Part shown: positions 14,696 through 54,272 of the stretch, piece by piece
Position numbering within the stretch: position 1 is the first letter of the stretch
Layout: each line of letters opens with the position of its first letter
The notes under the pieces: generated by a model
What the model was told of the DNA's origin: nothing
Seen by the model: only the letters and a program-made list of their open reading frames with translations
The model's database searches: none
Translations under genes and position numbers: made by a program
Assembly: GCF_963676685.1 (NCBI RefSeq)
Contig: NC_092355.1
Location: forward strand, 73,470,001-73,534,000
DNA length: 64,000 nt
Direction of reading: 5' to 3'
Origin: Mytilus edulis
Lineage: Eukaryota

Positions 14696-14786
14696 ACTAC
14701 TATAGGGGGCTCTGTGACCCCCATGATAAATAATTATAACCCCCACTATATACATTCTTATCGCAACAACATCTATCATTACATAA
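14696..14786 (+). repeat. Maverick left TIR
   Basis: actactatagggggctctgtgacccccatg...catctatcattacataa is the reverse complement of 54182-54272 with one mismatch. Confidence 0.97.
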
Positions 14787-15117
14787 CGGCATAATGGTCA
14801 TATAGATATATAGCACCCATATTTGAAGTATATCTGTTATTTTTAACAACCCTATTGCATAAGATATTTCATAAAATTTTACCCTCACATACTTTCAACC
14901 CCTAGATATTATAACCCCCAACATTTACATAAGATATTGAAATGTACTTTTTATAAAATTGTAACCCCTATTTTATGACATACTTTTAATTCCTAGGTAT
15001 TATAACCCCCAACATTTTATTGATCAGTAGAGTTTTCATTAATCATACACCATAACATGCTTACTATATAAACCTTCAGAATAAACTACTTAAATCATTC
15101 TTCCTCTTGTTAACGAA

Positions 15118-16188
15118 ATGGGGTTTGAAAGAAAAATGACAAAGTATCGATGTGGATGTTATTCTGAGGAAATGGCTCACGACTCCTTTGATTATACGGA
15201 ATCAAGTGAATACAGAAACATATGTGGAAGACATCCTTCAGAAGAATCAGCAAACGAAGATCATAGCAAGTGTACCAAAATGGTTGAAGTGATAGAAAAT
15301 GCACGCTATGCATTAAGTCAAAATATGGATACAGACACCGTTGCATGCCATTTAACAGCAAGAGAAGTAATTACAAAAGGTCAAAAAGATGAGTTACTAA
15401 AATGTAAATCGAAACAACTTAAAACAAGAAAACTTATCAACATGATAGTAGAATCGAAGAATATATCACTGCATCACCTTAGAATGTCTTTACTCAAGGC
15501 AGGTCAACCTGATTTACTACCTTATATCAGTGAAACAAAACAAAAAGAGAGTGACTACAGTGGTGATGATGAAAAGGATGCCCGACAATCATCTGAAAAT
15601 AGATGTATGATAGAACTACAGGTAGAGTCTTTCGTGGGAGTTAAAGACTTTAAGGGTCAAACATATATCAACATCCGTAATTATCAAACAATTGAAGGAA
15701 AGAAATATCCTACGAAACAAGGTGTGGCACTAACTTTATCACGTTGGTTAGTACTGGAAACTCAAAAGGATTTCATTGACAGTGTTTTTAAACTGTGTTT
15801 GACTGGAGAACAGGTTAATGAAGAACTTATTCATTTAGGCGGGGGTGTTTACGTTACATTAAATTCTAAATACCCTACAGTTGACGTCCGTCAATTTTGG
15901 AAACCAGAAGATAAAGATAAACCTATAGCTACAAAACGAGGAATACCTTTGAATAACATCAAATGGCAAAAACTTTGCGATTCCATGAAAATAATGAGAG
16001 ACTTTGTTCCAGAACTGAATAGCGCAGTCATCTGTAGAAATACCCACAACAACCAAATGGAAATGTTCAAGTGTTCTGAATGCGAACCTTACCACATTGA
16101 TGAGGATGACGACTTTGTAACACAGAATCAAGAAGGAGATTTCGAAATTATGAAAAACATATTAGACCCAGATGGTGAATCTGAATAA
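15118..16188 (+). CDS. Maverick accessory protein: CARD/death-fold-like domain, two PC4/Sub1-like ssDNA-binding domains, C-terminal Cys/His motif
   Basis: VIENARYALSQNMDTDTVACHLTAREVIT...KTRKLINMI...LRMSLLKAGQPDLL fits a CARD helix pattern. FVGVKDFKGQTYINIRNY...PTKQGVALTLSRW and VYVTLNSKYPTVDVRQFW...ATKRGIPLNNIKWQKL fit PC4. CRNTHNNQ...CSECEP at the C-terminus. TATA-like tatataaa at about 15065. Confidence 0.75.
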   Translation: MGFERKMTKYRCGCYSEEMAHDSFDYTESSEYRNICGRHPSEESANEDHSKCTKMVEVIENARYALSQNMDTDTVACHLTAREVITKGQKDELLKCKSKQLKTRKLINMIVESKNISLHHLRMSLLKAGQPDLLPYISETKQKESDYSGDDEKDARQSSENRCMIELQVESFVGVKDFKGQTYINIRNYQTIEGKKYPTKQGVALTLSRWLVLETQKDFIDSVFKLCLTGEQVNEELIHLGGGVYVTLNSKYPTVDVRQFWKPEDKDKPIATKRGIPLNNIKWQKLCDSMKIMRDFVPELNSAVICRNTHNNQMEMFKCSECEPYHIDEDDDFVTQNQEGDFEIMKNILDPDGESE

Positions 16189-16407
16189 CAGACAAAGAAT
16201 GAAAATAAATACATGTGACTTTCATGAACCAAGTGTTTACATACTTTCATTGTATTTGAAAAGATGATATATATATAAATAATGTAATTTGTAAATAAAA
16301 ATATATAAGATGATGTATTTTTTTTAATTTTCATTATAAAGAGTTGTAGTAATGGACATATTCATTTTACAAATAGAAATTGAACTGTCCATAAATACAT
16401 TAGGAAA

Positions 16408-17573
16408 ATGACACAAAAACAAAAAGAAGCATATGTCAAACGAATATGGACAGATCCAGGTCATCCAGCTGCTTTTGCTGGCCCTAATAAATTATTAAAG
16501 GTTATTCGTCAAGAAGGAAAATTCGACATCAGCAGAGGACAATTGAAAAAATTTTAGCTGGTCAAGATACATACAGTGTTCAAAAACCTTCAAGAAAAAA
16601 CTTTAAAAGGAATAGGGTAGTTGTTGCTGGTTTAAATGCTCAATGGGACGGAGATTTAGCATCAATGGAAAATGTATCGGACTTTAATTCTAAAAAAGAA
16701 AATGTGTCTAAGTTTAATTCTAAAATAAAATTTTTATTAGTATTGATAGACATATTTTCAAGATTTTTGATAGTAAGACCATTAATAGACAAAAAAAGTG
16801 CGACAGTAACAGCTGCATTAAAATCAATTTTTACCGAAGGTAACAGAAGACCCAATACAATTCGTTTTGATTTAGGAGGAGAATTTCAATCAAGTGTGAA
16901 AAAATATTTACAAAAGGAAAAAATTCACGTTTTTTACACATATAATTCACGGATAAAAAGTAACTACGCAGAGAGGGTAATCAGAACTCTGAAGAATCGT
17001 ATATATTCCTATTTTATGGAAAATCAAACATCTAAGTACATAGATGTTCTTCAAAAATTGGTCGACAGTTACAACAACACACCACATCAATCACTGGGAG
17101 GTGCAACACCTGCATCTGTGACAAAAACGAACGAAGACGAAATTCGATACATGCAATATGTGGCCAGAAAAAAGTCAGTTTCTACAGGAGTTATGAAACA
17201 TAAAAAGAAGAGGAGACAATTTTACAAATACAGGGTCGGAAATCAAGTAAGAATTTCGCAATTGAAAAGAGTTTTCGAAAAGGGATATCAAGAAAATTGG
17301 ACTTTGGAATTTTTTAAAATATCTAAAAGATATAGAAGACAACAACAGGACATTTACAAATTAAAAGATACCCTAAATCAGGAATTAAAGGGGTCTTTCT
17401 ACAGGTATGAGATCCAAAAAATTGACCAATCAAAAACGAAACTGTATAAAATAGAAAAGATTGTTAGAAAAAGAAAGTTAGACGGTAAAGATCAAGTATT
17501 AGTAAAATGGTTAGGTTGGCCAATAAAATTTAATTCTTGGATTTTCAAAAATTCCATCAAAGATATTAAATAG
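16408..17573 (+). CDS. Retroviral-like (rve) DDE integrase with C-terminal chromodomain; one 1-nt frameshift at about 16552-16557 (388 aa if corrected)
   Basis: ATG 16408 reads ...WTDPGHPAAFAG...KKF then TAG at 16555. The -1 frame continues LAGQDTYSVQKP...WDGDL (D1), RFDLGGEF (D2), YAERVIRT (E), YNNTPHQS, and chromodomain YKIEKIVRKR...LVKWLGWPIKFNSWI. Confidence 0.92.
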
Positions 17574-17590
17574 TTCTTAAATGTTGTTTA

Positions 17591-18037
17591 ATGTCATTAA
17601 TTGGGAAAATGAGCGTGAGACTAGTTGTATCATCAGATGACGGAAAAGATTTATTCTTAGAAAATAAACCACACGACTTTAGAGTCAAATTAAATCAAAC
17701 AATACAGCTGGACGGTTACTGGGTTGTCGCTGTTACCGAATTTACTACAACAGAACGCAACGATTCAGACCAAAAGCCGGAATTGTTTATCTTTTCCGAC
17801 ATATGTCAAGATAGTTTTATTGGAAATAACGAACAACCGTTACTTAGAAGAATATATTTCGACAGAAAAAAACAAAACAATATAGTTTACCATAATCCTT
17901 ATTACATACCCGTTCGATTTAGCGAAATACAACATCTACATTTTTATATAAAGGATGATAAAGGACAAGATGCCTCATTTCTAAAACAGAAAGTGACGAT
18001 AACACTTCATTTGAAAAAATTCCCGTTCGTTTTCTAA
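17591..18037 (+). CDS. Maverick minor capsid (penton-like, single jelly-roll) protein
   Basis: FLENKPHDFRVKL...L.GYWVVAVTEF; FIFSDIC...IG...PLLRRI; YIPV...IKDDKG...ITLHLKK; located in the morphogenesis cluster. Confidence 0.8.
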   Translation: MSLIGKMSVRLVVSSDDGKDLFLENKPHDFRVKLNQTIQLDGYWVVAVTEFTTTERNDSDQKPELFIFSDICQDSFIGNNEQPLLRRIYFDRKKQNNIVYHNPYYIPVRFSEIQHLHFYIKDDKGQDASFLKQKVTITLHLKKFPFVF

Positions 18038-18038
18038 A

Positions 18039-18491
18039 ATGAACCTAACAACTGAATCTACATTATGGGAGCAATTTTATAAAAACATGGCTTCAAATAA
18101 ATTTAACCCCTACCAATATAGACGCATAAAAAGAAAAAGACATTCGGGACGTGGACTTCATGGTCGTTTTAGAAATTCCTACATGATTCCGGTTAATCCA
18201 AATGCTGTTGACGTCAACAAAAATGTTATCAAGTCAACTATGGTATCACCTGTTGCTGCTGCAGAGGAAAGAGCAATGTCGGAAATGAAAGATTTAAAAA
18301 AAGAGGAAAAACCTCATGTGAAGGTAAAGAACATTATAAAAGACAAGAGAAAAAAGAAAAAGCTCAAAACGAAAAAATCTAACAAAGGATCAACATCGAG
18401 ATTAAACAAGAAAGAAAAATTGAAAAGAAAATTTGACAAGAACTATTACGATAACGCGTGGAATCAATACCGGGTTAAAAGAAAGCGATAA
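18039..18491 (+). CDS. Lys/Arg-rich putative DNA-condensing core protein
   Basis: Very basic 150 aa; HSGRGL motif; packed between mCP and MCP with 1- and 3-bp spacers. Confidence 0.6.
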   Translation: MNLTTESTLWEQFYKNMASNKFNPYQYRRIKRKRHSGRGLHGRFRNSYMIPVNPNAVDVNKNVIKSTMVSPVAAAEERAMSEMKDLKKEEKPHVKVKNIIKDKRKKKKLKTKKSNKGSTSRLNKKEKLKRKFDKNYYDNAWNQYRVKRKR

Positions 18492-18494
18492 ATT

Positions 18495-19802
18495 ATGGCA
18501 TATTTGAGTGATGATAATAAAGAAATTGGGCAACCAATGGAACTTTCTATTTTTGCCTCTCCTCCTAATCAAGTGGCAATCGAGAAAATGATATATACGG
18601 AAGAACGGCCTATTTCAAATTTGATTAACGACTCTACACCTATTGAAATAGTAATCTCGGGAGCTGGTAATGACTACATTGATTTGAGAAAAAGTCGTTT
18701 ATACGTTAAAATGCAAATTTTAAAAGAAGATGGAACCAAACTTGCACCAAAAGAGAAGGCAGGGATAATTAATTTACCTTTACAGAGTATGTTTTCCAAC
18801 ATCGATGTTTACATGAATAATAAATTAATATCGGCAAATTCTAACAATTATCCGTGGAAGTCATACTTTAAAGTCATTCTATCTTCTGGCAGTGATGAAC
18901 AAAATTCTCAACTGCAAAGTCAACTCTTCATGAAGGACAGCGAACCTATGGACTCTTTAAATTTAAATGCCGGATTTGTAAACAGATACGAATATACAAA
19001 AGAATCTAGGACTTTTGAGCTAGAAAGCAATTTAATGGAAGACACTTTACTTTTGGATAAATATTTGATAAACGGCGTAGACATCTACATCAAACTTTAC
19101 CGTTCCAATGCTCCCTTTTTACTAATGTCTGCAGAGAAGACCCCCAAATACAAAGTAAAAATATTAGACGTATTCTTCAGAACAGCAAGAGTCAAGGTAG
19201 ACCCTGGTGTAATATTGAATCACAGACGTCAAATTAAAGAGTCACCTGCTAAATACCTCATGAACAGAAGCCATGTAATACAAAATGTCATACCTCAAGG
19301 ATCAACTGAATTTTTTTGGGATTCTTTGTTTCCAAAAGCACTGCCTTCTAAAGTCGTGTTTGGACTTGTATCTCAAAAAGCAGCAAATGGACACTATACA
19401 GCCAATCCTTTCAATTTCCAACACTATAACATGTCCAATATCACTTTGAAAGTGAATGGTGTAGAAGTATACGGGTCACCCCTAAACTTAGATTTCAGCA
19501 ATAATAGAAATTACACAGCAGCATATGTTAGGCTATTTGAAATTTGCGATAAATGGCAAAAAGACACCGGTTTAAACATAACTTTAAATGATTTCGGTAA
19601 CGGCTATACATTCATTGTTTTCAACATGGATCCTTCGGACCTACAGGAAGATTTTCTAAATCTCGTAAAACACGGGAACGCCAGGTTAGAAATGAGATTT
19701 AGCGTACCTACGCCAGAAGTTATAAATTGTCTCTGTTATTACCAAACGCAGGCCATTTTGACCTGTGACGAGACAAGAAACATCAACATTGTGGAACCAT
19801 GA
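18495..19802 (+). CDS. Maverick major capsid protein (double jelly-roll)
   Basis: 435 aa; YIDLRKSRLYVK, SMFSNIDVYMN, YPWKSY, LINGVDIYIKL, LPSKVVFGLV, NPFNFQHY, GYTFIVFNM are typical of Polinton MCPs. Confidence 0.9.
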   Translation: MAYLSDDNKEIGQPMELSIFASPPNQVAIEKMIYTEERPISNLINDSTPIEIVISGAGNDYIDLRKSRLYVKMQILKEDGTKLAPKEKAGIINLPLQSMFSNIDVYMNNKLISANSNNYPWKSYFKVILSSGSDEQNSQLQSQLFMKDSEPMDSLNLNAGFVNRYEYTKESRTFELESNLMEDTLLLDKYLINGVDIYIKLYRSNAPFLLMSAEKTPKYKVKILDVFFRTARVKVDPGVILNHRRQIKESPAKYLMNRSHVIQNVIPQGSTEFFWDSLFPKALPSKVVFGLVSQKAANGHYTANPFNFQHYNMSNITLKVNGVEVYGSPLNLDFSNNRNYTAAYVRLFEICDKWQKDTGLNITLNDFGNGYTFIVFNMDPSDLQEDFLNLVKHGNARLEMRFSVPTPEVINCLCYYQTQAILTCDETRNINIVEP

Positions 19803-20248
19803 ATGGAAAACAATTAACCAAATTATTAACCGACTACGAATGTTTAAAAAAGACATTTATCCATATCATCGATCTTAATAATCTTCACGATATCGTCCAG
19901 AATCATTATCCACAAGTTTATATAATCAATCCGGGAAAACATTGGATATGTGTAATTTTCTACAATTCCATAGAAGCGGAATATTTTGATAGTCTTGGAA
20001 AACAGGTTAATTTTTATGGTACTAGACTAGTTAATTTCATAGCCAACAACAGTCAAAGATGTACTTCAATCCAGAGACAAACACAAGCTAACACTTCAAA
20101 CATTTGTGGACTGTATGTTGTATTTTTTGTAACAATGAGATTATGTTTTAAAATGTCATTGGAAAATGTATATGATATGTTGTCTGTAAATAGGCATGAA
20201 AATGATCGATTTGTTAAGTTATATTTTTTAAAGGTATATTCTAAATAA
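19799..20248 (+). CDS. Adenain-like cysteine maturation protease
   Basis: PGKHW (His), EYFDSLG (Asp), QANTSNICGLY (Gln/Cys); ATGA overlap with the MCP stop. Confidence 0.9.
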   Translation: MNGKQLTKLLTDYECLKKTFIHIIDLNNLHDIVQNHYPQVYIINPGKHWICVIFYNSIEAEYFDSLGKQVNFYGTRLVNFIANNSQRCTSIQRQTQANTSNICGLYVVFFVTMRLCFKMSLENVYDMLSVNRHENDRFVKLYFLKVYSK

Positions 20249-20329
20249 AGTAAGATTAACAGATATTTTTTATTTACTTATTCTTCATGAACCTTATGAC
20301 GTAAGTCTTAATAAAAAACCCCCGCTATT

Positions 20330-21022
20330 ATGACAGTAGTTCATTTGTCACAAACAAACGCGATGGAGAATGATCGAACGATGTTACCCTTTTCTTCGCC
20401 GACAACAATTTGTGTAGTAGGACCAACTCAGGCAGGCAAATCGATGTTTACTAAAAGACTCATAGAAAATGCCAATGTCATGTTCGTTGAACCACCAGAA
20501 AAAATATTGTATGCTTATTCCGAATATCAACCACTGTTTGACGACATGCAAGAACAATCCAACTTGATATTTCACGAAGGTCTCCCGGATAAACAAAAAA
20601 TTGAAGAATTTACGGAAAATGGAAAACATTCATTGATTATTTTGGACGATCTAATATCTAAAATAGTACAATCGGAAGAGCTTTTGCATTTATTTTCTGT
20701 TACAAGTCACCATAGAAAGGCATCCGTAGTTCTCATTTCGCAATCTTTGTACCCTCCAGGAAAATACGCTAAAAGCATTTCTTTGAATTGTGCCAATTTC
20801 GTTTTGTTTCGTAACCCTAGAGATATGCGTCAGCTGATAACCTTTGCATCGCAGATTCTCCCAGGCATGACGCAATATTTCATGGACAGCTATTTAAAAG
20901 CGACAAAAGAGAGGTATTCGTATATGCTCGCTGACCTTTCACCCCACAGAGAAGATCGACAATACATGCTCAGAACAGGGATTTTTCCCGGTGACACGTG
21001 TGTAGTCTACAGACCTATATAA
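20330..21022 (+). CDS. A32/FtsK-like genome packaging ATPase
   Basis: Walker A GPTQAGKS; Walker B LIILDD; SHH..ASVVLISQ; ISLNCANFVLFRNPRD. Confidence 0.92.
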   Translation: MTVVHLSQTNAMENDRTMLPFSSPTTICVVGPTQAGKSMFTKRLIENANVMFVEPPEKILYAYSEYQPLFDDMQEQSNLIFHEGLPDKQKIEEFTENGKHSLIILDDLISKIVQSEELLHLFSVTSHHRKASVVLISQSLYPPGKYAKSISLNCANFVLFRNPRDMRQLITFASQILPGMTQYFMDSYLKATKERYSYMLADLSPHREDRQYMLRTGIFPGDTCVVYRPI

Positions 21023-21061
21023 ATATCGATGAATGTGTTTTTTCGTATCATTTTGTAAAAT

Positions 21062-21370
21062 ATGAGTCAACGAATGAAATCAAATACAGTATTTTTAAGA
21101 TTTTTATACCAAGCTAGTAAAAATCAAAGAGTGGCAATCTTTCCACATTTGACTAAAGAACAGGTGAATGTTCTATCCGAAGTGGCTTTAAACATTTTTA
21201 AAGGAGTGTTTCCGAACAAACAAAAATATCTAAAAACTTTGAAACCATATAAATCAGTTCTTTACCAATTAGGATCAAAATCATTAGGTGTACGAAAGAA
21301 AAAACAATTACTGATACGTTACAACAATTTGATTCCACATTTGTTAGGACCCTTATTGGATTTCTTGTAA
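21062..21370 (+). CDS. Small basic Maverick protein of unknown function
   Basis: 102 aa; LSEVALNIFKG resembles a small ORF family common in Mavericks; preceded by tatataaata at about 21017. Confidence 0.65.
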   Translation: MSQRMKSNTVFLRFLYQASKNQRVAIFPHLTKEQVNVLSEVALNIFKGVFPNKQKYLKTLKPYKSVLYQLGSKSLGVRKKKQLLIRYNNLIPHLLGPLLDFL

Positions 21371-21372
21371 CA

Positions 21373-21645
21373 ATGGCAAAAGAGCTGATATTAGTGTCAA
21401 AAAGAAAATACGAAGAACTCTTAAAATCGGGGAATCATAGGGATACAGAAATGACAAGACAGGTCGACGAGCATGAAAAACCTGAAGATAGTGATCCGGT
21501 GAAAGAAGTTTCTATGCAAACAGGAAATGGACAATTCGTTGAAAAACTAGACACTAATGAACATGGTACGCCCGGGATACTAGATCGCCCTCCGAAGATA
21601 CGAAGGAAGACATTAAAAAAGAATGTAAAATGGATTTCATTTTAA
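21373..21645 (+). CDS. Small Maverick protein of unknown function
   Basis: 90 aa, 2 bp after the previous stop; MAKELILVS start, QTGNG motif, KWISF end; converges on pPolB. Confidence 0.6.
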   Translation: MAKELILVSKRKYEELLKSGNHRDTEMTRQVDEHEKPEDSDPVKEVSMQTGNGQFVEKLDTNEHGTPGILDRPPKIRRKTLKKNVKWISF

Positions 21646-21687: not shown

Positions 21688-24600
21688 TCACTTATTTACA
21701 CTACAATAGCCAAATGGTAAAGTTGTCAAGTCGTTTAATAACCGTCTCTTCGTGTATACCATTCTGTAATCTTTCTCTTCGACCCTGTTATACAATTTCC
21801 TTTTAAGGGCTAGTCTTGAAATTTTGCGTGGATTCCTCGTTTTGATATACTCGATATTTTTATTCACTACAACATCGCAAATAGAAGAAAAATTAATTAG
21901 ATCTGAATTGGTTTTATTGTTTAAGGAAAAGCCTCTAACTTTACAGGTTTCTCTTCCAGAGGCCATCTTATAGGCGTAATTCTTAGGACCTCCAGACACA
22001 AAATGTGTAATATGTCCATCTTCTGGTGAAACTTCGTTTGTCAATTGACCCAAGTAATTCCCTATGGGTAGTGTTTTTGTTAAGTTTTTATCTTTATCCC
22101 GAAAGATAATCGAGTCCGTATCCACGTACAAAGCGTCGGTACCAGTACGTTCCAGTAATTCGTACAGTTTGGTCCTTGCCCAACAAGTAGTAAATGAAGC
22201 TATGAAAATGTTAGTTTTGACGTCCATAGGAATAAAAAACGGATGATCCGTATGTTCCATTTGTACCAAATCTTTACTAATGATGTGAAAATCTATAACC
22301 TCTTTTCTAGGATCAGACAGTAACTGAAAAAAATTCTCTGCCTCGTTCTCGTGGAAAAATGTAGTTTGTTTCATATTTAGACGTTGACCAAATTTACCCC
22401 AAAAACTGTTTAAAGCAATTTTTGCCAAGCTACGAAGTCCTGGATTTTTTTTAATTTGATTATAGTCCAAATGTATTCCTTCATTTTTAGCGTAGTCTGC
22501 TATGTAATCCCGTTTCTGTTGTTCCGTTCTGCACTCTTCTGGAAACCCCGATGCTTCTTGTTTTAATTTCAAAAAGAGGTTGACATATGCATCGAAAAGT
22601 CCTCCTTTGCCCGTTCGAGGATTGTACGTTCGATGTTCTGGAAAGTGATATACTTCGTATATCTTTTGAATTGCATATCCTTTCGAACGTGCCAGATTCA
22701 GCTCTGGAGTACACCAAGTTCCGACAATAGCTCTTTCTTCATCTGTACAGGTACAGTCATTTTGGTTTTCGTTATCTGCACATTGTTTACAGAGTGGAAA
22801 CTTCAATTTTCCATTAGAAACGTACGGTAGAACAGGATGAAACAGATGCCTGTTAGGCAAGACTTTGACCTTCGCGACTCCGAAATAATTGGAAATATCT
22901 TCGAAATCCGATGTTATGATGACGGGATGACCAACTGGATATTTTCCATATTTGTTGACACTGGGATACAGACTACAAAATAAAAAAAAATGATATAACA
23001 AGGGATGAAATCATTTGAATAATTATATCATAATCCAGATTCTAAGAATTGAGATTACCTCGTAAAGTCGAAATACTCAATGGTCTCTCCTGGTTCTGTA
23101 CATTCGTGATAGAGCGTAATTGGATTGGTCCTACCGCCAAAAAAACTTTGTCTAACGTCTAAACGATCTTCGATCTCACACGTTGATACGTAGTCTCTCA
23201 TAGGGTCGTCTAAATCCAGCTGGTGGTGAAATTCGTGCTCCCAAATGCAGACATACTTGTACCCCAGACGTATCAGTTCTCTCTCTTTCTTTCTGGTTAG
23301 GTAGTACAATTCATTCATAGAATGTTTTGTCATTGGATGTGTTGTCTTTGTTCTATCGTGTGGGTAGCAGGAAGGACATCCATGGAAAACACAACCTTAA
23401 AATATATAATAATATATATATATATATATATATAATATATAATGTATATACATATATATATATGTGTGTATATATAATATATAAATTTTATAAACATATT
23501 AATATTGCCGCCGCCGCCGCCACCACCGTTTCGTCTCATACATTTACCACTCACCTAAGAATTCGTAAGCTGTCTTTTTTGGGAACTCCACGTAACCGTC
23601 TAGTCTGTAGTTCGTTCCAGGTACTTTGTATTCACCTCTACCGTTCAAGGCGTGTTGTATGTGGAGTCGTTTTCCCTTACGTCTGCTGGTTTCCATGATC
23701 CATTCCAACCACTGAATGGAAACTTTGCTAAAATTATCCCTTGCAACATAACCTTCTGACGGGACGACAGCAATCGGACTTTTGACAAATGTCGTTTTCT
23801 CTACTTTGTATGTATCCGAAGAATGTAAAGCTTTTTCGGTTACCCATTCACCACGGGGCAAACGTACAAGAAATTCACCACTTTCCTGTTTCGATGGACA
23901 CTTCAGAGTCTCGTTATTCGACAAATTTGTCAAAACAGTTTCATATTCTTCTTCCAGAAACAATTGTCTGTAGATCGCCTGACAGGCAGAGGCAATCGTG
24001 ACGTAATCGTATGGATCTATGCCTTCGGTAAGTTTTTCGTTGCTAACCGAAGTAACTTCCATCATGATTTTTCGAAACTGCATGCATCCACGTCTTAAAA
24101 TGTCTACGTCCGATACACAGTACTTGTACATCTCTGACTGAAAATCAAATGTTTTGCTCTTGTTGCTATTGTACCATTTCCAAAATGTGTTGGCTTCTTC
24201 TTCGCCCATGTATTCGATTCCGTAATAGTATGCCTCTGGTTGTGGCCCTTTATAAGACTGGTTTTCTTTCGTGTTGAACAGATGTGGAAAGTAACCTTTT
24301 TGTAATTCCTGTAAACCGAAACACTTGGGAATTTTCGACAATTTCATTCCTATGAAATTGATCGAATCCAGGAAGGTCAGGTCTAAATTCTTTGACACAT
24401 GCATATATACTATCTTCGAACCGTTAAAAATAATTTTATTGGGTTTTACGCTGTGGTGTTCTATCAGGGCATTCAATACGGGGTAGTTGTCAAAACCTTT
24501 CGCATTGTGTGCTATGAGTACCGTGTTTTTGTAATGCGGCGTCATAATCTGGGAACAAAATTCGTATGGAACGTCTTCGCCTTTAAACACCCTTTGTCTG

Positions 24601-26991
24601 TAACCGCAACTGCTTTCGCATGGAAGTGTCGTAGTATTCTTTTTGAAAATTCTACACTTATCACAGCGACTTCCACAAGTGTTACATTTTGAATCCGCGG
24701 TTAATTCTACATTTTCACAAATGACGCATGTGGACTGTAAAACCGCATAATTCACCTTGTGTTCCGCTAATCCGCACCATGACTGGTTACAGTTTTCACA
24801 AATTTTACACGTCTTACATCTTTCATCTGCTGAACATTTTTGTAGACAGGGTCGTCTAGGTACATGACCGTCCTTGCATTGATTATTATAACTGCATGTA
24901 ATCCGATGACAATGGGTACACTCTTTACATTTCCTACATCTATCTCTGTCCGTGCATGATTTCCCACACGGAACGTTAGGTGCATACCCTTCTTCGCACG
25001 ACATCTTTTCGTTTTGGGTTGTTTCGAAATCGTAAAAAAAGTATTTTCTCGGTTCTTTCTTCGTCGTATCTTTTAATGTCTTACGTTGATAACACCAATG
25101 TGTACCTATGTGATATTCGAAACAGTTTTTACATCGCCACTCACCGCATGTATGTTGTTCAGGTGAGCGTTTCTGTCGACACAGAATCTTACGACAGTTT
25201 TTACACTGGTAAAATCTTTCGCACATCGTTTTGCTATTTTCATTGTCCCTTTTAGACGTTTTGGTATTGTGTCTGTCATAACAGTCCTGGCTGCGACATG
25301 TTTGATTGCATTGAGAGCAAAGAACAGTATGATTACTAACGCGACACAAATTGCTACCACATACGGCACATGTGTCAACGCAAGAGTGTTTTCCTTTATT
25401 TTTGTAAGGTTTTAAGCAAGATTCGCAAAAATACCCATAGCCAAAAAAACCATTTATACTTCCTATACCTTGAAAATGGCCCGTTCCATCGGTATTTTCT
25501 ATCAGATACAAGTAAATATTTTTACGCTGTGCTTTGGTACTGACTCGACAAAACTTGTTGCCCAATCTGGCAGAAAGTACCAAAATATTAACGTCCAATA
25601 CATTTTCAAATTGTTCGATATCTCTTATACTTAAAGCTTCGTCTGTTGAAAGATTGGCTTCTTTGCATAATGTTATAGCCATTGTTTTACTGTAACTTGT
25701 ATTCTTTAGAGCAGATGCACTCACGTGTTTGAAATAACTTTTAGTCGTCATTCCGTGTTTTATGACTTTTTGAAAAGTGTTCATGTCTTCGTCGTTTTTT
25801 GTTGTTTCCCTCCATTTTTCTAATGGTACAATTTTACAGAGTTTTAAAAAACATCTACCAATAGCCGTTGCCAGACACATTTTATCTTCATTGCATACCT
25901 GTAAAATCGATTTTTTCAAAGCCAGGGAATTCGATGTCCCTTTCAGGCGAATTATTGGCAATCTCCCACTACCTCTAGGTACTGTTATATTTCCTATCGT
26001 GACATGCATTGACGTATCTAAAGGTAGGTTTTCCTCTGAATTCAGCACATTCTCGACAGCTTCCATTACTCTTTGTGAGTTTATGTTTGACCATTTATCT
26101 AAGGGTACAACGATGGAATTATTTAGTTCGGGATGAGAGATGATAACTCGTCCTAAATCGTTGTCATTGCCTTTGGCTTTGTTTAAAACATCATCAAACA
26201 TGTTTTCCAATTCCTTTTTAAGATTACGTAGTTTTTTACCCTTCCACGTATCATTAAATTTTACTTTATACGTGGTCTCTTTTGCCAGATTTTTAGAGAA
26301 TGTTTTTTTGTCCGGATCTTCGAAATAAATAGGGGTTTTCTTCGGGTTCTGCGCCGTAACCCTCTTCTTCCGAGTCATTCATGTTCAGTGTGATATGTTG
26401 GTCAGTACCAACAAGCACATTTTCTATGTCTGACCCATTAGTATTGGGGCAACTGGTGGAGTTAAAAGGTAATAAATTTGCGAGGATGGAGTCTCCCAAA
26501 TCATCCGATGGACAGTGTAGAGGTGTAACCAGTTCGCTTTCCAACGTCGGGGTATATTGGTTAGAAAAGCTTGTGGAGGGTACGTCTGATATATCGCTGG
26601 AATAGTCAACGGTAGTATTATTGGCTATATTTACAGTTGTGTTTTGACCTGTGGTCATGTCACCCAAAATTTCATGGATTTCCAAATGGTCTCTCAACTC
26701 CGTTGATAAATAAAATCTCTTTTTACACCATGTACACGTAAGTAAAATTACGAGCTTGTCTAATACTTGAGAGTTGTTTAAGAGACAGTTATCTGTGGCC
26801 CAACTTATCAAACTGTTGGCGTCAGTGAAACTGTTTAGAACATCTGTCCAATTGATTGACTGAAAATGATTTATTCTGTTTTGTACCAAGATATGATTCA
26901 TTAGACCATTGTCTGCGGCCCATTCTTGTAACTCATTTAAAGATGTGAAGTTGTTGATGATATTGTTCAAGGTTGGTGGTTTGTGTTTCAT
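21688..26991 (-). CDS. Protein-primed family B DNA polymerase; 3 exons (26991-23555, 23395-23059, 22972-21688); one +1 frameshift in an A7 run at 26303-26309; about 1685 aa if corrected
   Basis: ExoI FFYDFET; ExoII AHNAKGFD; ExoIII YCVSDVDIL; Vsr-like domain RLDGY...YEFLGCVFHGC...WEHE; motif A YFDFTSLYP (formed by splicing); motif B KIALNSFWGKFG; motif C YVDTDS; GPKNY. N-terminal C2H2 finger CTWC...HLEIH. Confidence 0.93.
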
Positions 26992-44290: not shown

Positions 44291-44558
44291 AATTTGGAGT
44301 TATCTCCCATTGTTTTGACCAACTTTTTGTGAATGAAGTATTAGTGGTACATTTTATTTCTAACAGTCAAACATTTTAATTGAAAGGTGGCAAATTAGGT
44401 GTTCTTCAACTTAATTATTTGTTTACTTCTGAAAATCATAACAAGATAGGCCCATTTTCTTGTGTTTTTTTTTATAAAAATTTGTTTAAACACTGAATTA
44501 GCCCAGTCAATCCATTTTAACTTTCGACTATTAATATGCAGTTTTAAATTGTGTAGAT

Positions 44559-47500
44559 TTAATTTAATGTTTGTACAATGAGTAAAATGTTACTCAAATA
44601 ATGCTGCTTTAGGTGAACATAAGGAAATAAGCCCTGGATGTCCTCTTCACATTTAATGTCTTTGTAGTTCAAAACAATTTTGTCACACAAAGTTTGGGTC
44701 AATCCTGTCACAAGTTGTTGGTTTAACATGTTTATTTGATCATTTTCTGCATTGAAATATGATTCTAGCATTTCCTTTAATTGTGTACAATCAGGTTCAT
44801 CAGCACATTGACAATTATCTATGACCTCACACTTTTCCACTTCACTTACAAGACAATGATCACATTCACATTCTTTTTCACATACATCACAGCAGTTATG
44901 CTTAAGTATTGAATCTAAATCAACCTTTGTCTCAAAATACTGGCTTAGAAACTTTCTTCTGCATGTTTTTAGGAGGCAGAATTCTCTCACTTCTGGTTGT
45001 ACAATTGTGTTGGTGGCAATATCACTCATATTGTAATGCATATATGCACTGCTTTGTCGACCATCTCTACCAGCTCTACCAATTTCTTGTAGATAACCTA
45101 AACGAGTAAACAATAATTGTTTTTGTTAAATCATTTCCTTTCATTTTTCAAATTTTTGGTTCTGACATTCATGAAAAAAACGAAACAATATTACATATTT
45201 CAAATTTTAGAACTGCAATTTTTTTCTGTTAAAGTCTCATGTTTTTTTGCATGTTGGTGTATCAGCATATGAAAATGTGACCAACATACAGCATTGGCTT
45301 TTGATCTCAAGGTGAAAATATGGATTTTTGTATTGTAAATACTTGTGACCTATGACTTTTCATCTTTTTTTACAAAGTGTTATGATATTTGGAATATCAC
45401 AAAAGGATGAAGTGTATGATTTTTAGGCGTCTATGTATATATATATATATATATAGTTACAATTATTGGCCTTTCACTTGTTGTAAAATATGAAAGTCTT
45501 TGTGAAAATTAATTAATATATGCATAATCCAGAACTTTTCTATTTAGATAAATTTATTTATATTTATAAATATGCAATTGTGTAATATATATGTATTAGA
45601 CCGCAGTCAAATTTTTTAAGGTGCTTATGATCCAATTCTTGCAATTTAAATATTATAAACTGTTAACATAAATAGTTAGTTTTATGTTTCCATATGTAGA
45701 TAGGAGATAACTACCCTTATATTTTATCAGTTGAGTCTGCTTTTTATGCAGCTCTGAACACCATGGTTCTGTTGGTATTAATAGACACAGTCTAAAGGGG
45801 AATAATCCTTACATATGATACTGATTGTCTCCCATATCAATTATGTATTCAGTGTTTTATAATGTTGTATTTTATTATATTATTATTTCATTGTTATCAT
45901 ATTGTATGAAATTTTGAAACCCTAATAACCTTTAGTGTAATACGTTATATAGCCTTAATACTTGCATTCCAAAGAACTTGGTGGTCCAATGTGGCAAACC
46001 CTTTCCACATCTGGGGCATCAGTGCCCATACCATAAGCTTGAGTGGCAAAAAGCAACTTTATGGATCCATGTGTGTCTGCCATGTTCTGTGCTATATTTT
46101 TTTTCATCTAGAATTATACAATTTATTTCAAATGCAAATGATTTATAATGATTTCATATTTCTTTATACATGTAAAATACTGTTTCATTCAATTCGTTGT
46201 TTATTGTTTAATACTAATGAAATATGTTGAATAAAGTGGACATGGACATTAATGTTCTGTAACAATTAAACTGTTTTTTTTTGCATCCATGTACAAAGAT
46301 GAATAAGGGTTCTGTCCATGGCCAAATATTAAAATTAAATCAAAGTCAAAAGCACTAAATGCATGAGCGTTATGAGTATATGACCGCATTAAGATAAAAT
46401 GAAAATTCATAATATAAGTAGTAACCAATGGATGTCACTGTCATAATTTGTTGGACAATATTAGTGATGGGCACATCTAATGATTGGTTTATTTTTCAAC
46501 TCTTAAAAAAAATATTTCTGAAATATGCTTATTTCTTGTAAACCATATTATGAAATTAAAAGAAAAATCTTCTACCTTAAGAATGGAAGTATTATTTATT
46601 ACAAAAATATGTACAAAAACATCAGACCAAAATGAAAATAGAAAAAATATTTGTACTCCTGTGGAGTCAGTATACCAGATTTGAATCCATTCCTTTTTTT
46701 GAAAGTTTGCCTGGAGTTTGCTTGTCTATGTTTGATTTCTTAGTAGATTATAAAAGGAATGCTTTATTAATATTTAAAATAACCTCATCTGTGCAAGGTG
46801 CATGGAACTGTGACACTGCTGAAAGTATTTCATCGGTATTGTCTTCCAGGCGGGCTGCCTGTGACACCATGTCATAGCCTACTCCACACCATTTCAGTTT
46901 TGAATAAACAATAGTTTTGGGAACATTCCAGATCTGACTACAAAGTTCCTCAATATATGGGTTTAACACATCTTGATATGAACCTTCTGCTGTTGTTTTA
47001 CCTCCAGTGAGAGGTAAACGTTTTTGAACTATAAGTTTGATGTTTGGTCTATCAACTGGACCTGATAGGGAAAACACATCTTTCATACAAAGTTGTTGTT
47101 GTATCTCTTTCCTCATTTTCGGTGTTGCTGTTGCTGTAAGTGCTAGGATTTTTGCCTGTGGCAATATTGCACGTAATTTTGAAATGTTTCTGAAATCTGG
47201 ACGAAAATCGTGTCCCCATTGAACCACACAATGAGCCTCGTCTACTACAATGTGTGACACATTTTCCCAACTCTTCTGCTTAAAAATGGTGCAAACTTCT
47301 TTTTTTAGAATTTGTTCAGGGTGGCCAAAAATGTACTCAAATTTACCATCCTTGAAATCTGCTGCCTCTGGTCCTGAAATATAAAAATTAAACCTTTTTG
47401 GTACATAAACACCATTTATTTTTAGACTTTGATTAATAATAAGATTAATATGTATTTACAGATTTAATGTAAAAATATTATTAACAGTTTAATTCTTTAG

Positions 47501-50410
47501 AAACAGATGCATGAATGTAAGGTAATGTATTGCCCACAGGATTCATTTGACATTGGTCTCATTTCATGTTTCTATTTCTATAACTAGCTGCAATCAATAT
47601 TCTATATATGAAATGATTGTGAAGTGTACATGTATTTCCATCTTGGTTATCTGACATTAAAATTTTGGTTTATTTTATTTAGGGAATTTTATGACTGTAA
47701 CATTTTTTCGGTCTATGAAGAAATGTTATAAAAAAGGTGCTGCACACTGAATAACCTGTATATGTGTTATACTAAAGTGTGCACCACATTTTTTATTGTT
47801 ATTTGTCCATAATTTTATTCTAATTTTCATTTTAAACTGGAGTAAATCATGAAAAGGTTGATGACGTCACAGTCACATTTCAAAATTATGTCTACATGTA
47901 TGAGCTGATAGACAAAACACTGTCACTTGTTACATCCAAAATAAAATTTTGGTTTAATACTTGTAGTTAAATTTTTAATTTATGAATATCATTGCATAAA
48001 ACATTTGGTTTGAAAAGCAGGAAAGACAGTTCAGCATGTGCAATTTTGTTTTAATAAATGATTGAAGACAAGTATTTTAACATGAAATATAAAATTAAAC
48101 TTATCAATTTTTGGTTTTTAAATTCTATATTATCTGTTGGATAATTCAAAGTGCTACCAAAGTAATTCACACAAAAAGGTAATTGAAAGTATATAAAGCA
48201 ATAAGCACATCAACGGTTCCTGGTCCCCCAGATTATATCAAGAATCTGTATTATCTGCCATAATGGCAGGGGTATCATTGGGCACCACCCAACTCATTGT
48301 TGCCAGGTTAAATGTGTCATGCAACAGTACTTGAACTTATTATACATAAGATGTAGTAAGAGGTCCAATGAGGCAACTATCAATACAAGTCACTAGCCTA
48401 TTTTAAAAGTATTGCCGAAACATTTTTCTGCAAAGTGTAGCGAGGCTAAAAATAATAAACGAAGGAATCATGCTTTCTGAGTGTTTCCCAGACCCTGTCT
48501 TAATCTGAAAGCTTGAATGTGTTCTGTTTCAAAATTGTTTATATTTTGGACTCAAAGCAAAATGTATAGAATCTGTGTAAGACTTTAGTTTTTAGGGACA
48601 ACATCTAAAGAAAAATATTTAGGATAAAGCAAAAATGTAATTCACATAGTTCAGCATGTGGCCACTGGGTTTTCCTTTTTTCTTTTTGTGTGTGTGACTG
48701 TTTCAGCTTGCATAATTTTAATCTTTTATACCTGTAAATTATTAAAAAAAAATTCAAATAAGTCAAGAGGGGGCTGAATATCATTGATATAACTATGTCA
48801 AGTAAGTTTTTATAACACATTTCAATTACAATTTGATGTAGCTCCTATAAACTTGGATACAATTTTTAGTACCGTAGTTGAAAAGTTGTAATTTTATATT
48901 AGCTATATAATATAAAACTAAAAGGTATGCAAAAAAGAATCCAGGATCAGGTGTTTAGTGTTTGTAAGCTCATGATTATGTGATTGACCCTTTCAGGATA
49001 AAGGAATTCTTTTTTCAAAATTTCATGATTATGATTTGTTTTGATTTTGGACTTCAGGATTTCATGTTTTTTTAAGTCCAGGATTTGGGGATCACAACCC
49101 CTCCTCCCCCCCCTCCCTTTCCCTTCAATGCAGACATTTCAATTGTATCTAATTAATATTTATTCTTTTTTAAATAAAAGATATGGGAATTTTTTGAAGA
49201 TTTTTTTTTTAAAAAGATGAATATTATAAATAATCTGGTGCCCTCTCAAAGTATCAAACTATGAATAGCATTTATGAAATGGCTTAAAAGACCTGCTGAG
49301 TTATCTATTTTCAATAGTAAAACATTGCAAGTCAGATTAGTTTTTACAAATTACCACAGAACAAACCATTTATTTTTGTGATTATCAAGGCAGCCCCATG
49401 TTAGGGGAGGGGGATTCTGCCAACATGTTTAACTCAACACATTATATATGTATTTGCCTGTCCCAAGTCAGGAGCCTGTAATTCAGTGGTTGTCGTTTGT
49501 TTGTGTTACATATTAGATTTTCATTCATTTTTTTATACAAATAATGTAAGGCCGTTAGTTTTCTTGTTTTGAATAATTTTACATTGTCATATAGGGGCCT
49601 TTTATAGGTGACTATGCAGTATGGGCTTTGCTCATTGTTGAAGGCTGTATGGTGACCTATAGTTGTTAATGTCTGTGTCATTTTGGTCTCTTTTGGATAG
49701 TTGTCTCATTGGCAATCAATTACCACATCTTCTTTTTTAGTTATTTATTTCACCCCCCACCATGAAATGGTTGTTCCCTTACACAACATATTTTCTGTTG
49801 AAGAACAAATAAATATACATTTATAAATATAATTTGTTCTTCCTTTAACATGTTTAATATTCTGCAAAACTGGAACACAATTTAAATATAATATCATTTA
49901 TTTATATCTATTGGTATTTATAACAGTAATATCAAACATATATCTGTATGAATATTTTTGGTGTCTCTGTTTATCTGTTTCATACTTGAGTTTCCCTAAA
50001 ATTAAAAAGTGTCAATGACACTGCAGTCAAGAATGGAATGAATGAATATTACAAATACCTTCAAGACTATTTATTAGCGCTGAATTAACGTTAACAGCCT
50101 TTCTACCCAGCTTTCTTGTCTGCTCTTCAATAATGGCATTTAAGGGGCTGATTATTATGCATTTGGTGTTATTCATTTTTCCAAGCATTTCAAAAATTAA
50201 TGACTTCCCATAGCCAGTGGGTAGCATGATCAACGCATCACTTTTCATTGCACCTTGAATACTTTGCAATTGCAAAGGTTTCAAGTGGGTTAAATTAACA
50301 TTTCGCGTACAGTTGATCTTAGTTAAGGCAATTTTATGTATCAAGACATTCTTAAGTTTTTCTTTAAAATCTTTCACATCGTCTGCTGCCATATTGTTTA
50401 TTGTTGTCAT
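44559..50410 (-). CDS. RecQ-like SF2 helicase of AcademH, 4 exons (50410-50059, 47373-46784, 46107-45966, 45097-44559), about 540 aa, intact
   Basis: Motif I LPTGYGKS; Ia SPLNAI; II DEAH followed by CVVQWGHDFRP; III LTAT; V ATQAYGMGTD; VI QEIGRAGRDG; RQC zinc site CRR...CCDVC. Intron 3 requires a GC donor (t|gcaagt at 45965). Confidence 0.9.
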
Positions 50411-52237
50411 TTACAAATGCATGCCGGGAGAAAACACCGGCTTTCCTATTTTGATGACGTCAATATTTTTAAATTTAGAACAACCTCGATTTCAAATAAA
50501 AAGATGGCGTTATACCCTACCTGTCTTGATATATGAAATATGTAATATGCACATTGATCTAGACAGGCGAACCAGTCTAGGGGTGAATGGAGAACCTGTT
50601 GGGATAATATCGAATGTCGCTAATTGTTTCAGTTAATAAGAAGGAAAAAAACCCGTTGTAATTATTCTTATTTGTTGTAAATAAAATATTAATTCAATTT
50701 CGGATTATATATATTATAAAAGAAAATAAATTCAACTCCATGACACTCGAGCTACCTTCTTACGTTAGAAGATTCGATATAGAAAAACTTACTGTTCTCT
50801 AAAAACACTAAGTACCAAACGGTTACGGTTAAGGACATGATTTTCATTCGTATACATATAGGTAAATACTAGGGTTATTCATACAATTTTGACTAAAATC
50901 TGTAAATGAAAATATATCAATAACCTGATATAACATTGAATATTTTTTTTTTAAATGTCATCCATTATTGTAATACTGTTAACAATTGCAGTACTACACA
51001 TTGAGAGGAGTAAATTTTATATAATAAAAAAAAAAATGTTCCAGATATATCATTTTAAGCATTTGTTTTATCCACATAATTTCTCCTGTGTACATTTAGT
51101 TGAATCCTAAGTCCTATGTACTAGAGTATTAATACAGTGTTTTTTCCCCCATATACATTTTATAAAACCTACCATCACTTCATATTTTGGATTGCTCATT
51201 TCATACAATTCTTCATTCTTCCCCCCTATTGACAATTATGAGGTTGTTTTTCATAAGAAGTCTTGTAAAATATTCTTTATATTGTTATTTAAAATCATAG
51301 ATTCCAACACTAAACATTTTATTCATTTTAAAGTGTAGTAAATTGTTCTGACATATTAAAAAAAAAATCTAAATTTGCCTATTTTCAGTAACTAACTAGT
51401 GAACATTATATTGTATTACATAACCATTAGTTACAACAGAATCCATAGTCTAGTAGGAAAGGTCTATGATGGAAACCTACAGACTGAAAAGCATCTTAGA
51501 TATTAATCTCAGGTACATGTACATGATTTTTTTTTTATCATTTAACATAACAATTTGTAATAGTAACACTATTTTAATATATGGTCTTTGTTTTTCATAA
51601 CAGTCTATGTAAAAGATGTGTAAATTGATAAACCTCAAAAGATGTAAAAATGATAAAACAATAATTTAATGGGAAGTTTCAAACTATTATGTAGTTTACA
51701 TAATTATTTGTTATGTAAAGATTCATATCTATTGTTTAAAAGGGTCAATTAGAAGATCTGTAAATCTTAGATTTTACAGTTACTTATTAATTATGTAACA
51801 TTTTTGTATAAAATATACACTACTTTCTTTTTAACAGCACAGGTCAACAGATAGAAGATATTGTAAGTACTAAAACTATTCTTTTTACACTTAGATTTTT
51901 CAAAAATGTTACTTTTATAAATATAAAATATTTTATCTAAAAAGTCTTCAATGATTGTAGTAAAAGCATTGATTGTAACAGTGTTAGTACTGTGTACCTC
52001 CATTTTCATTTTGAACATCCTTGAGTTTTATGTCATCCTTGTACATGTTATACTTGTTTCCTTTGAATTTTGTAACATTTGCTCCTGTTTATCTTATTAT
52101 TTAAGAGATTGGTTTCTTAATTTAAATTATAGTGTGTGTGTGTGTGTGTATTTTTTTTTCCTGTTGACATTATTGTATTTTTAATTATATTAATTACTGG
52201 AGGTTTTTTTTCCAGGTATAATCAGATTAAATTTATT

Positions 52238-53098
52238 ATGGAAGGAGCAGCAATGATGAAACAAGAGCCTCAAGCAAATGATGTTCAGACAAGGTATTTA
52301 ATAATTTTTCATTACTGTTATTATAATTGTTCTTAATCATTACAATATAGATAATGAAACTGAATAGACTGAATCTCTTACATTTTTGATTATAAAAAAG
52401 AAGATGCAGTATGATTGCCCATGAGACAACTCTCCACAAAAGACCAAATAACACAGAAATTAACAATTATAGGTAGCCATATGATCTTCAAGAATGAGCA
52501 AAGCCCCTATCACATGGTCAGCTATAAAAGGTCCCACCATGATAATGTAAAACAATTCAAACAAGAAAATTGATTAGCATACTATATGATATTTTTACAA
52601 TATAACAACTAACTATTCTTATTTTGAATTCAGTTCAATATTTGATAATGATAATAATAATTCACTGAATATTTATAATTTAAATGTATTTTTTTAGGTA
52701 CTGTAAATTCAGAAATTAATGCGAGGTTTTTATTATTGCGAAAAATGCGACTGAGTTGTAAACGCAATAATTAAAACTCGCATTTTGAAATATTTTATAT
52801 GAATTTAACAGGATTTTTCTCAAAATCGTTAAAATTAAAATCGCATTTAAGTCTAAAATGACAAAATCGCAATAATAAATGAACGCAATAATTTCTGAAT
52901 TTACAGTATTCAGAAATAGCTGTGATTACTCATTTGGAAGACCTCCTAAAAAAGAAAATCGACGACATGGCTGTTAAAATTATGTATCAGGCTGAATTGA
53001 TGGAACGGAATAAAATGAAACTGAATAGTGACATTGTATTTAAAAAACAATTAAAATCCCGCAAAAGGGATTTAATGTCTGAAGAATTAAACAGTTAA
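52238..53098 (+). pseudogene. Putative two-exon 82-aa helical protein in the Maverick right arm, disrupted by a MITE
   Basis: Exon 52238-52293 (ag|gtattt) splices to the acceptor at 52697. Removing the MITE and one TA gives MEGAAMMKQEPQANDVQTRYSEIAVITHLEDLLKKKIDD...EELNS*. Confidence 0.45.
52701..52906. mobile_element. Tc1/mariner-like MITE with TA TSD
   Basis: ta|ctgtaaattcagaaattaatgcg ... cgcaataatttctgaatttacag|ta. Confidence 0.85.
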
Positions 53099-53491
53099 CC
53101 TTAGAAGAAGGACAAACCATATATATAGTTTTTTAAATATCTAAAGACATTTGTTGTTGAATTAATTTTGTATTATACATTTGTGTAATGAAATTTATAG
53201 ATTCTTTTATTTGATGTCTTTATATAAATAAAGTTATCTTGACAGGCTATGTAGAGAGTTTTTATCAAATGTTATACCTGTATATAATATCTGATTTCAT
53301 TTAACTTTATAACATGCATGTAAAGGGGTTTATTAGTAAAAAACTAGATATAGTTTAAAAAAAAACCAACACTAATAATATATGCATACCTAATTTATTT
53401 CACAAATATTCACAAATAAATTACACTGTACAATATCTGAGAGAAAATATCATTTATACTTTTACAGTTTTTCTACATGTATTAAACCATA

Positions 53492-53941
53492 TCATCCTAA
53501 ATGTTTCTGATTCAAAGCTTTATTAATATACTGTGTGATGGCTGTTAAGTAGTTCCATTGTATCAATGTTAATGAAATGCCTTTAATGGTAGGTTTATGG
53601 TTTAAAAATTGTCTGATGTCTATAACTGTTCTCTTGTTGTATTCACATATAGTTAACACAAATTCACTAGGTAGACTAAAATGTTTAATAAAAGAGCACA
53701 ATGACTGGTTGAAGTTTTGGTCAATTTTAATGTAGTCAGTCATGTTTGTGTTTTGTTTTGAAGATTCATATACACCACAAGTTATCCACAAAGTTGTTGC
53801 TGATAATATTAATATCACAATTACTCCTGTCCATTTCAACATATTTATATGCATTTCATAATGATAGTACATATCTGACAAACTAGATGCAATGCTTTTT
53901 CTTGATGATGAAGATGTAGAATTAATCCTGGTATGTGACAT
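53492..53941 (-). CDS. Maverick accessory protein: single TM helix plus PC4/Sub1-like domain, 149 aa
   Basis: ATG 53941; TM WTGVIVILILSATTLWITCGV; NMT and NQS sequons; FVLTICEYNKRTVIDIRQF...KPTIKGISLTLIQWNYL PC4 signature. Confidence 0.75.
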   Translation of the reverse strand: MSHTRINSTSSSSRKSIASSLSDMYYHYEMHINMLKWTGVIVILILSATTLWITCGVYESSKQNTNMTDYIKIDQNFNQSLCSFIKHFSLPSEFVLTICEYNKRTVIDIRQFLNHKPTIKGISLTLIQWNYLTAITQYINKALNQKHLG

Positions 53942-54039
53942 GGTTAAAATATTATGACAACCTTTCTCTTTCAAGTCATCAATGTAAATAAACTTGTAAA
54001 TAAATAACAACTACTCTTATTTGTCAGTTATGGTTGCTT

Positions 54040-54040
<1 letters not shown>

Positions 54041-54105
<65 letters not shown>
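54041..54105. repeat. (CT)n microsatellite between the right TIR and the TM-PC4 gene
   Basis: 65-bp perfect CT run. Confidence 0.98.
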
Positions 54106-54110
<5 letters not shown>

Positions 54111-54181
54111 AATGTTGAAAAGTATGTTTTAATATCTTATGTAATAGGATTTTATTAAAGTTCAAAAAGTGGTGATATATA

Positions 54182-54272
54182 TTATGTAATGATAGATGGT
54201 GTTGCGATAAGAATGTATATAGTGGGGGTTATAATTATTTATCATGGGGGTCACAGAGCCCCCTATAGTAGT
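54182..54272 (-). repeat. Maverick right TIR
   Basis: Ends ...gagccccctatagtagt, followed by the TSD aatgaa. Confidence 0.97.

Follow-up and report, generated by a model that had tools for sequence, protein, structure and literature searches.

An ACTACT-ended Polinton/Maverick of Mytilus with predicted introns in its polymerase and putative membrane-protein genes and a nested AcademH-like transposon

We analysed a 64,000-nucleotide stretch of the Mytilus edulis genome (assembly GCF_963676685.1, contig NC_092355.1, positions 73,470,001 to 73,534,000 of the forward strand; hereafter the window, in whose numbering coordinates are given), which carries a Polinton/Maverick between positions 14,696 and 54,272. 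We read this element, with high confidence, as a recently integrated Polinton of a Mytilus lineage, about 20.8 kb long and with ACTACT ends, that was later hit by an 18.8-kb AcademH-like transposon; it probably replicated from its ends by protein priming, and probably needed host splicing to make its polymerase. Three points are of interest: the ACT end is lineage-wide, the predicted polymerase introns are inherited, and the tail of a predicted membrane protein encoded by the element carries an invariant PSAP motif.

The ends of the element, with its terminal inverted repeats (TIRs) and target-site duplication (TSD) in a long interspersed nuclear element (LINE), are these:

14690..14695, no strand: left TSD, AATGAA, within the 3' tail of a LINE; right copy at 54273-54278
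14696..14786, plus strand: left TIR, 91 bp, starting ACTACT
54182..54272, minus strand: right TIR, ending AGTAGT

The two TIR arms (14696-14786 and 54182-54272) are 91 nt long with one mismatch, just as a preliminary description of the sequence had given them, read 5'-ACTACT...AGTAGT-3', and lie at the short end of the published Polinton/Maverick range (100-1500 bp). Both flanks carry AATGAA. The insertion target was the 3' tail of a fragmented LINE with a TTCA tail (window 11810-14695 and 54273-54292), which has an RVT_1 match in the left flank and whose tail resumes past the right end. In 10 of 10 paralogous LINE tails fetched (40 other flank matches were listed) the hexamer is single and stands directly before the TTCA tail, so that the perfect 6-bp duplication and the ACTACT start, both proposed in the preliminary description, are now exact. 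The features by which Polintons/Mavericks are recognised are present together: a protein-primed DNA polymerase B (pPolB), an rve integrase, TIRs, a 6-bp TSD, and a capsid, ATPase and protease set. We conclude that the element is a bona fide Polinton/Maverick. Searches of the 1.37-Gb host genome recovered further copies, with 101 capsid matches and six TIR matches; sibling copies differ by 0.45-2.2% substitutions, which together with the six TIR matches indicates a recent spread of the family in few copies, and upholds the earlier view of a recent element.

Nearly half of the sequence between the TIRs is foreign to the Maverick:

31809..50579, no strand: nested AcademH-like DNA transposon, 18,771 bp, with ends TAGACTGG...CCAGTCTA and a 10-bp duplication GGGGTGAATG
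35670..41914, plus strand: transposase-side exons of the nested element (zf-AD, DUF6589)
44559..50410, minus strand: RecQ-like helicase exons of the nested element (Pfam DEAD; helicase and Cys motifs)

The preliminary description had assigned all of 14696..54272 to one element; its boundaries stand, but 18,771 of the 39,577 bp belong to the nested transposon, and the Maverick proper is 20,796 bp, inside the usual 13-25 kb. That the block lies between both TIRs would fit a single giant Maverick of 39.6 kb with DUF6589 and helicase genes as cargo. Three sibling Maverick copies on C11, however, join position 31808 directly to 50590 with no insert, and the block has its own 8-bp inverted ends and 10-bp duplication; near-identical free copies of it stand at C1, C4 and C14, where a capsid DNA search found no match. 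We therefore reject the giant element, to which we give practically no chance, on the empty sites in the siblings. The block copies differ by 0.1-3.8% over most aligned blocks and by about 10% near the left end. AcademH transposons encode a helicase and make 9- or 10-bp duplications (PMC10045372); the nested element resembles them in both respects (PMC10045372, PMC10799480), and its C1 copy has a 9-bp duplication. KolobokH was considered for its identity and ruled out, as the TTAA duplication of Kolobok (PMC9587614), four base pairs long, and RR...YY ends are absent. The DUF6589 region holds candidate D, D and E motifs of a putative transposase. The insert sits 41 nt upstream of the start codon of the membrane-protein gene. 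At the C4 copy (L012:8350-8430) a terminal stretch is repeated after the right end.

The ACTACT end is not peculiar to this copy. A sister family with 88-89% identity in the major capsid protein (MCP) and the same gene order starts with ACTACT in both copies examined (TSDs TATGTG and AACGAC), and so does a decayed, rearranged element on C4 (TSD TAAGTA; 72% DNA identity in MCP). Thus four full elements of three subfamilies combine ACTACT with a 6-bp TSD (window, AATGAA; C11, TATGTG; C11, AACGAC; C4, TAAGTA), and the three others were first found through capsid similarity, not by motif. We inspected 15 ends and found (ACT)2 at each. A pattern search with ACTACTAWMGGGGG gave 16 matches against 19 for the reversed control, a count that is by itself no evidence; 15 of the 16 are the inspected ends and one, on C14, has no Maverick gene nearby. 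Three more distant groups, with two copies looked at in each, end differently, the 49% group starting AGTAGAGTAG and the 37-38% and 31% groups AGTAGT. In a 43-row MCP tree, midpoint-rooted, made with decayed copies left out and with no one-clade test, the ACT rows fall in a 10-row clade (support 100/100) whose sister is an oyster/pearl-oyster clade, with the AGT families outside. The (ACT)2 end is a trait of the lineage, and the distinct lineage proposed in the preliminary description is borne out by this clade, which stands apart from the four AGT-starting families of the same genome. A switch of the end from AGT to ACT would be the simplest reading of the tree.

Vertebrate Mavericks end in (AGT)2, (AG)3 or (AC)3A, motifs tied there to jump-back priming (PMC8097293). 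Although 5'-AC...GT-3' ends are thus already known as (AC)3A, the (ACT)2//(AGT)2 end of the window element is not among the three motifs in the parts of that account used here, and (ACT)2 is the three-base counterpart of (AC)3A. At one sister-family end there are three ACT units against two at the partner end, which is what slippage during slide-back priming would give, although this is one case among 15 ends. This copy (L030:1600-1620, C11 near 44922600) has the left end ACTACTACT and two units at the right, a possible trace of such slippage.

The closest named capsid proteins come from Mytilus edulis, M. trossulus and M. coruscus, with oyster relatives at 55-57% capsid identity. Wider scans for relatives returned 49 loci in metagenomes and five in genomes, scans of viral contigs returned none, and both ends were seen in none of the seven mapped metagenome loci. 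Polinton genes also occur in records labelled as bacterial gill symbionts (L129, L130, L131; P0110, P0125, P0147), which are likely host DNA. Within the host genome, C11 44.9-45.5 Mb holds a cluster in which Mavericks of several families lie together, among them partial copies that are duplicated along with identical flanks; the decayed ACT-ended element at C4:48223280-48241212 (L064, L033) differs in gene order and has three additional PC4-like genes; and about 20 equal-scoring capsid matches suggest that the AGTAGT-ended 31% family went through a very recent burst.

The pPolB gene is predicted to be spliced, with two introns:

23396..23554, minus strand: pPolB intron A, 159 nt, GT-AG, inside EFLG/CVFHGC, containing a GGC run
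22973..23058, minus strand: pPolB intron B, 86 nt, GT-AG, splitting polymerase motif A (DFT/SLYP)

Their removal restores EFLGCVFHGC and DFTSLYP in frame; with further predicted introns in accessory genes, this agrees with the spliced genes of the preliminary description. Among 106 long relatives that carry no eukaryotic gene-model label the sequence is continuous at site A in 100 and at site B in 104, a set that holds only proteins of at least 743 aa and is hence biased toward intronless genes. The sister family keeps both intron sites, and the exons are joined identically in database models of its polymerase. In two oyster-clade contigs intron A is present, at the identical site and phase, and intron B is missing. 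All five intron-A rows of the polymerase tree fall in one 8-row clade (99, FastTree), together with two rows continuous at site A and one gene model.

Maverick core genes have been called intronless in vertebrates (PMC8097293) and nematodes (10.1101/2022.07.12.499685), at least in the excerpts of those accounts drawn on here, and introners have been described in dinoflagellate proviruses (PMC11957031). That description of core genes, an AT microsatellite inside intron A, and large pPolB insertions in a C11 sibling are what one would cite for the predicted introns being insertions that inactivated the gene after integration. This is highly improbable, as the same sites and GT-AG ends are found in the sister family at about 72% DNA identity, purifying selection is strong in all exons, and intron A is present in the oyster-clade relatives. 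Between window and sister, dN/dS (the ratio of nonsynonymous to synonymous substitution) is 0.07-0.10 in all three exons at a dS of 1.7-2.3, by a simple pairwise estimate in which synonymous sites are near saturation. We conclude from these comparisons that the predicted pPolB introns are inherited under purifying selection through rounds of replication, rather than products of decay after integration.

Intron A also contains a GC-rich element. GGCGGCGG or its complement occurs in 7 of 7 intron-A sequences examined, nowhere else in the window, and 14 times in 945,705 bases of compared loci; it may act as a G-run splicing enhancer or in regulated retention. The GGC/CCG run (window 23500-23527; L028, L031, L045, L048, L080, L081) is kept across lineages about 50% apart in capsid.

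Another gene with predicted introns encodes a candidate membrane protein:

29113..31767, minus strand: predicted type I membrane protein, 304 aa, four exons (31767-31518, 30459-30274, 30024-29971, 29537-29113)

The four joined exons match the database model P0244 (XP_071143936.1) exactly. The protein has a signal-like N end, a domain with eight cysteines, a Thr-rich stalk, a hydrophobic segment, and a tail with YLP and SPEPSAPPME, both of which are invariant in 4 of 4 aligned tailed sequences at 33-38% identity. Enveloped viruses carry P(T/S)AP as a late domain that binds TSG101; YxxI/L serves as a sorting signal. Judging from these motifs, the protein likely binds ESCRT-I through PSAP and a sorting adaptor through YxxI/L, and likely acts in membrane traffic. 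A protein atlas gave no usable match (best 0.81, chance level), and a profile of the eight-Cys domain retrieved 12 clusters among 1.84 billion proteins, none functionally named and with all named sources Mytilus.

The gene might instead be a captured host gene riding along, with a PSAP that has no role for the element; it has introns, several of its genomic matches lie in partial elements or lack nearby core genes, and it is 93% identical in M. californianus. We consider this unlikely. In the diverged sister family the gene, 40% identical, occupies the corresponding position; each of the 14 genomic matches resembles either the window copy or the sister; the profile retrieves only those few unnamed clusters; and the accession numbers of one distant member and of a capsid protein, on contigs of equal length, are five apart.

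The remaining accessory genes, with a miniature inverted-repeat transposable element (MITE) in one of them, are these:

15118..16188, plus strand: CARD and two PC4 domains, single exon (Pfam CARD 6e-7, PC4 2e-17)
52238..53101, plus strand: small two-exon gene, function unassigned (44% identity to sister)
52701-52905: 205-bp MITE at the start of the second exon of the small two-exon gene, in this copy only and absent in siblings
53492..53941, minus strand: hydrophobic segment and PC4 domain (TM-PC4), 149 aa (PC4 3e-9; hydropathy 2.19; 63% to sister)

The CARD-PC4 fusion occurs in 3 of 3 relatives tested (the sister family, an AGTAG family and an oyster-clade contig), and is therefore a marker of a wider clade and not of the ACT clade alone. 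PC4 is a single-strand DNA-binding fold, for which structure matches were found; the protein likely works in replication or transcription, and the CARD possibly links it to death signalling. The preliminary description was right that accessory genes lie outside the canonical set, but we count four where it counted three. Of its membrane and immune-type cargo, a membrane protein is indeed predicted, while the immune type comes from the CARD domain alone.

The core genes of the element, including its minor capsid protein (mCP), are as follows (pLDDT, the predicted score of the local distance difference test):

16408..17573, plus strand: rve integrase with chromodomain (rve 7e-7, just under the curated cut-off; D-D-E motifs; frame break near 16,556)
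17591..18037, plus strand: minor capsid (penton) protein, mCP, single jelly roll (model pLDDT 84.7)
18039..18491, plus strand: basic protein, putative core protein (labelled from position and composition; open frame; conserved in relatives)
18495..19802, plus strand: MCP, double jelly roll (model pLDDT 82.2)
19799..20248, plus strand: adenain-like maturation protease (Peptidase_C5 7e-4, below the curated cut-off; H, D, C motifs)
20330..21022, plus strand: A32-type packaging ATPase (Pox_A32 5e-5; Walker motifs)
21062-21370 and 21373-21645, plus strand: two small conserved genes
21688..26991, minus strand: pPolB, three exons, with a VSR-like insert (PF03175; exonuclease and polymerase motifs; frame break near 26,303)

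The order is thus CARD-PC4, integrase, mCP, basic protein, MCP, protease, ATPase and the two small genes (21062..21645), presumably of PW/PZ type, on the plus strand, with pPolB on the minus strand. The open mCP, core, MCP, protease and ATPase frames of the preliminary description are confirmed, and the MCP model is a double jelly roll. In fold searches the MCP model matched the mavirus MCP at E 1e-14, with mavirus, iridovirus, PBCV-1 and Sputnik capsids at 1e-14 to 1e-13, and the mCP model matched a PBCV-1 capsid chain (7.5e-5) and the mavirus penton (1.8e-3), although a sequence search of solved structures had not identified mCP. A Pfam scan gave no match for the basic protein. The VSR-like insert in pPolB was recognised by eye, and one relative is named very-short-patch endonuclease.

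Several observations qualify the reading with which we began. The integrase and pPolB frame breaks, which may be either mutations or assembly errors, leave the copy as assembled unable to copy or move itself, because both frames are broken; both breaks (near 16,556 and 26,303) fall within runs of one base, and the closest sibling lacks them but carries other breaks and insertions. Between window and sister the protease has a dN/dS of 0.47, above the other core genes. The hydropathy of the segment proposed to span the membrane in the four-exon gene product is modest (1.85-1.92). An AGTAG-family intron lies two bases from site A and a second one at a different site, and P0122 and P0123, both members of the intron-A polymerase clade, show no interruption at site A; the shifted intron and these read-through relatives leave a single gain of intron A unproven. 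A programmed frameshift at the pPolB break was considered and dropped, the closest sibling having no break and the sister family one long frame there.

Elsewhere in the window, 2843-3916 (plus strand) is a single-exon frame of 357 aa for a rhodopsin-family G protein-coupled receptor, a host gene. Three other inverted-repeat pairs (6549-6617/10219-10287, 99%; 7534-7584/8263-8313, 98%; 54840-54915/55909-55984, 88%) are likely non-autonomous DNA transposons, one inside another. Host repeat fragments lie in non-coding parts of the Maverick at 30743-30921 and 52383-52571, and siblings share both.

Set beside known systems, which we cite from excerpts of the published accounts, the window element shares with vertebrate Polintons/Mavericks the pPolB, rve integrase, MCP, mCP, protease, ATPase, TIRs and 6-bp TSD, as well as a repeated 6-bp end motif and a size near 17 kb (PMC8097293). 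Intact vertebrate Mavericks are described with no pPolB introns (PMC8097293), whereas the window pPolB has two predicted spliceosomal introns and the element four accessory genes. With the mollusc pPolB2 Polintons that carry a VSR insert (10.1101/2023.08.22.554363) and the Beta adintoviruses (PMC8502044) it shares a marine mollusc host, a divergent pPolB and a VSR-like insert, the last judged by eye. The excerpted accounts of these two groups do not give end motifs or the cargo of the window element, and the pPolB2 survey, which accepted pPolB frames only from 900 aa upward, does not treat splicing (10.1101/2023.08.22.554363). Nematode Mavericks share intron-bearing cargo, which is thus already known, and a signal-peptide single-pass membrane protein, but their core genes are described as intronless, and MFUS-1 is an 866-aa gB-like fusogen (10.1101/2022.07.12.499685), in contrast to the 64-aa Cys-rich ectodomain and long PSAP-bearing tail of the window protein. 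CARD-PC4 and the first polymerase intron also occur in relatives that lie outside the ACT clade.

A bivalve Polinton family with the ACTACT end, the introns and the cargo may already have been catalogued, for example in Repbase, and the window element would then add only a new member. Bivalves are rich in Polinton-type regions (10.1101/2025.04.19.649669), mollusc pPolB with a VSR insert has been described (10.1101/2023.08.22.554363), and the oyster relatives are close in capsid; literature searches, on the other hand, returned no description of (ACT)2 ends or of a spliced pPolB in animal Polintons, in what they surfaced of the papers, though the end-motif search was weak and swamped by unrelated papers. 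We regard prior cataloguing as a real possibility, if clearly the less probable one.

If the element worked as its genes suggest, priming would occur on the inner ACT unit and be followed by a three-base slide-back, as adenovirus does on CATCAT, and the integrase would make the 6-bp staggered insertion; both steps are drawn from the known biology of pPolB. For their expression pPolB and the membrane gene would rely on host RNA polymerase II and the spliceosome; a virion would be assembled from capsid, penton, ATPase and protease; and the membrane protein may serve either virion exit or the removal of a host surface protein. We suggest, as a speculation that we think more probably wrong than right by some distance, that a Polinton lineage of bivalves is a nuclear virus that depends on splicing. 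It would leave the cell without lysis by means of a membrane glycoprotein of its own, whose PSAP late domain recruits ESCRT, would set its polymerase output by the conserved intron with the GC-rich element, and would have changed its priming end from AGT to ACT.

The ACT end completes a two-by-two set of ends (AG, AGT, AC, ACT), and AGT relatives coexist with it in the same genome, a setting in which the co-evolution of ends, terminal protein and integrase can be tested. Because of the inherited introns in a core polymerase, a survey that looks for long open frames can overlook such elements or count them as decayed; splice junctions in pPolB offer an easy marker of true expression. According to the papers on these elements, in the parts drawn on here, no virions of animal Mavericks have yet been observed, and how they would leave the cell has long been open. 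An invariant PSAP in a membrane protein specific to the element would offer a concrete, testable route for that exit.

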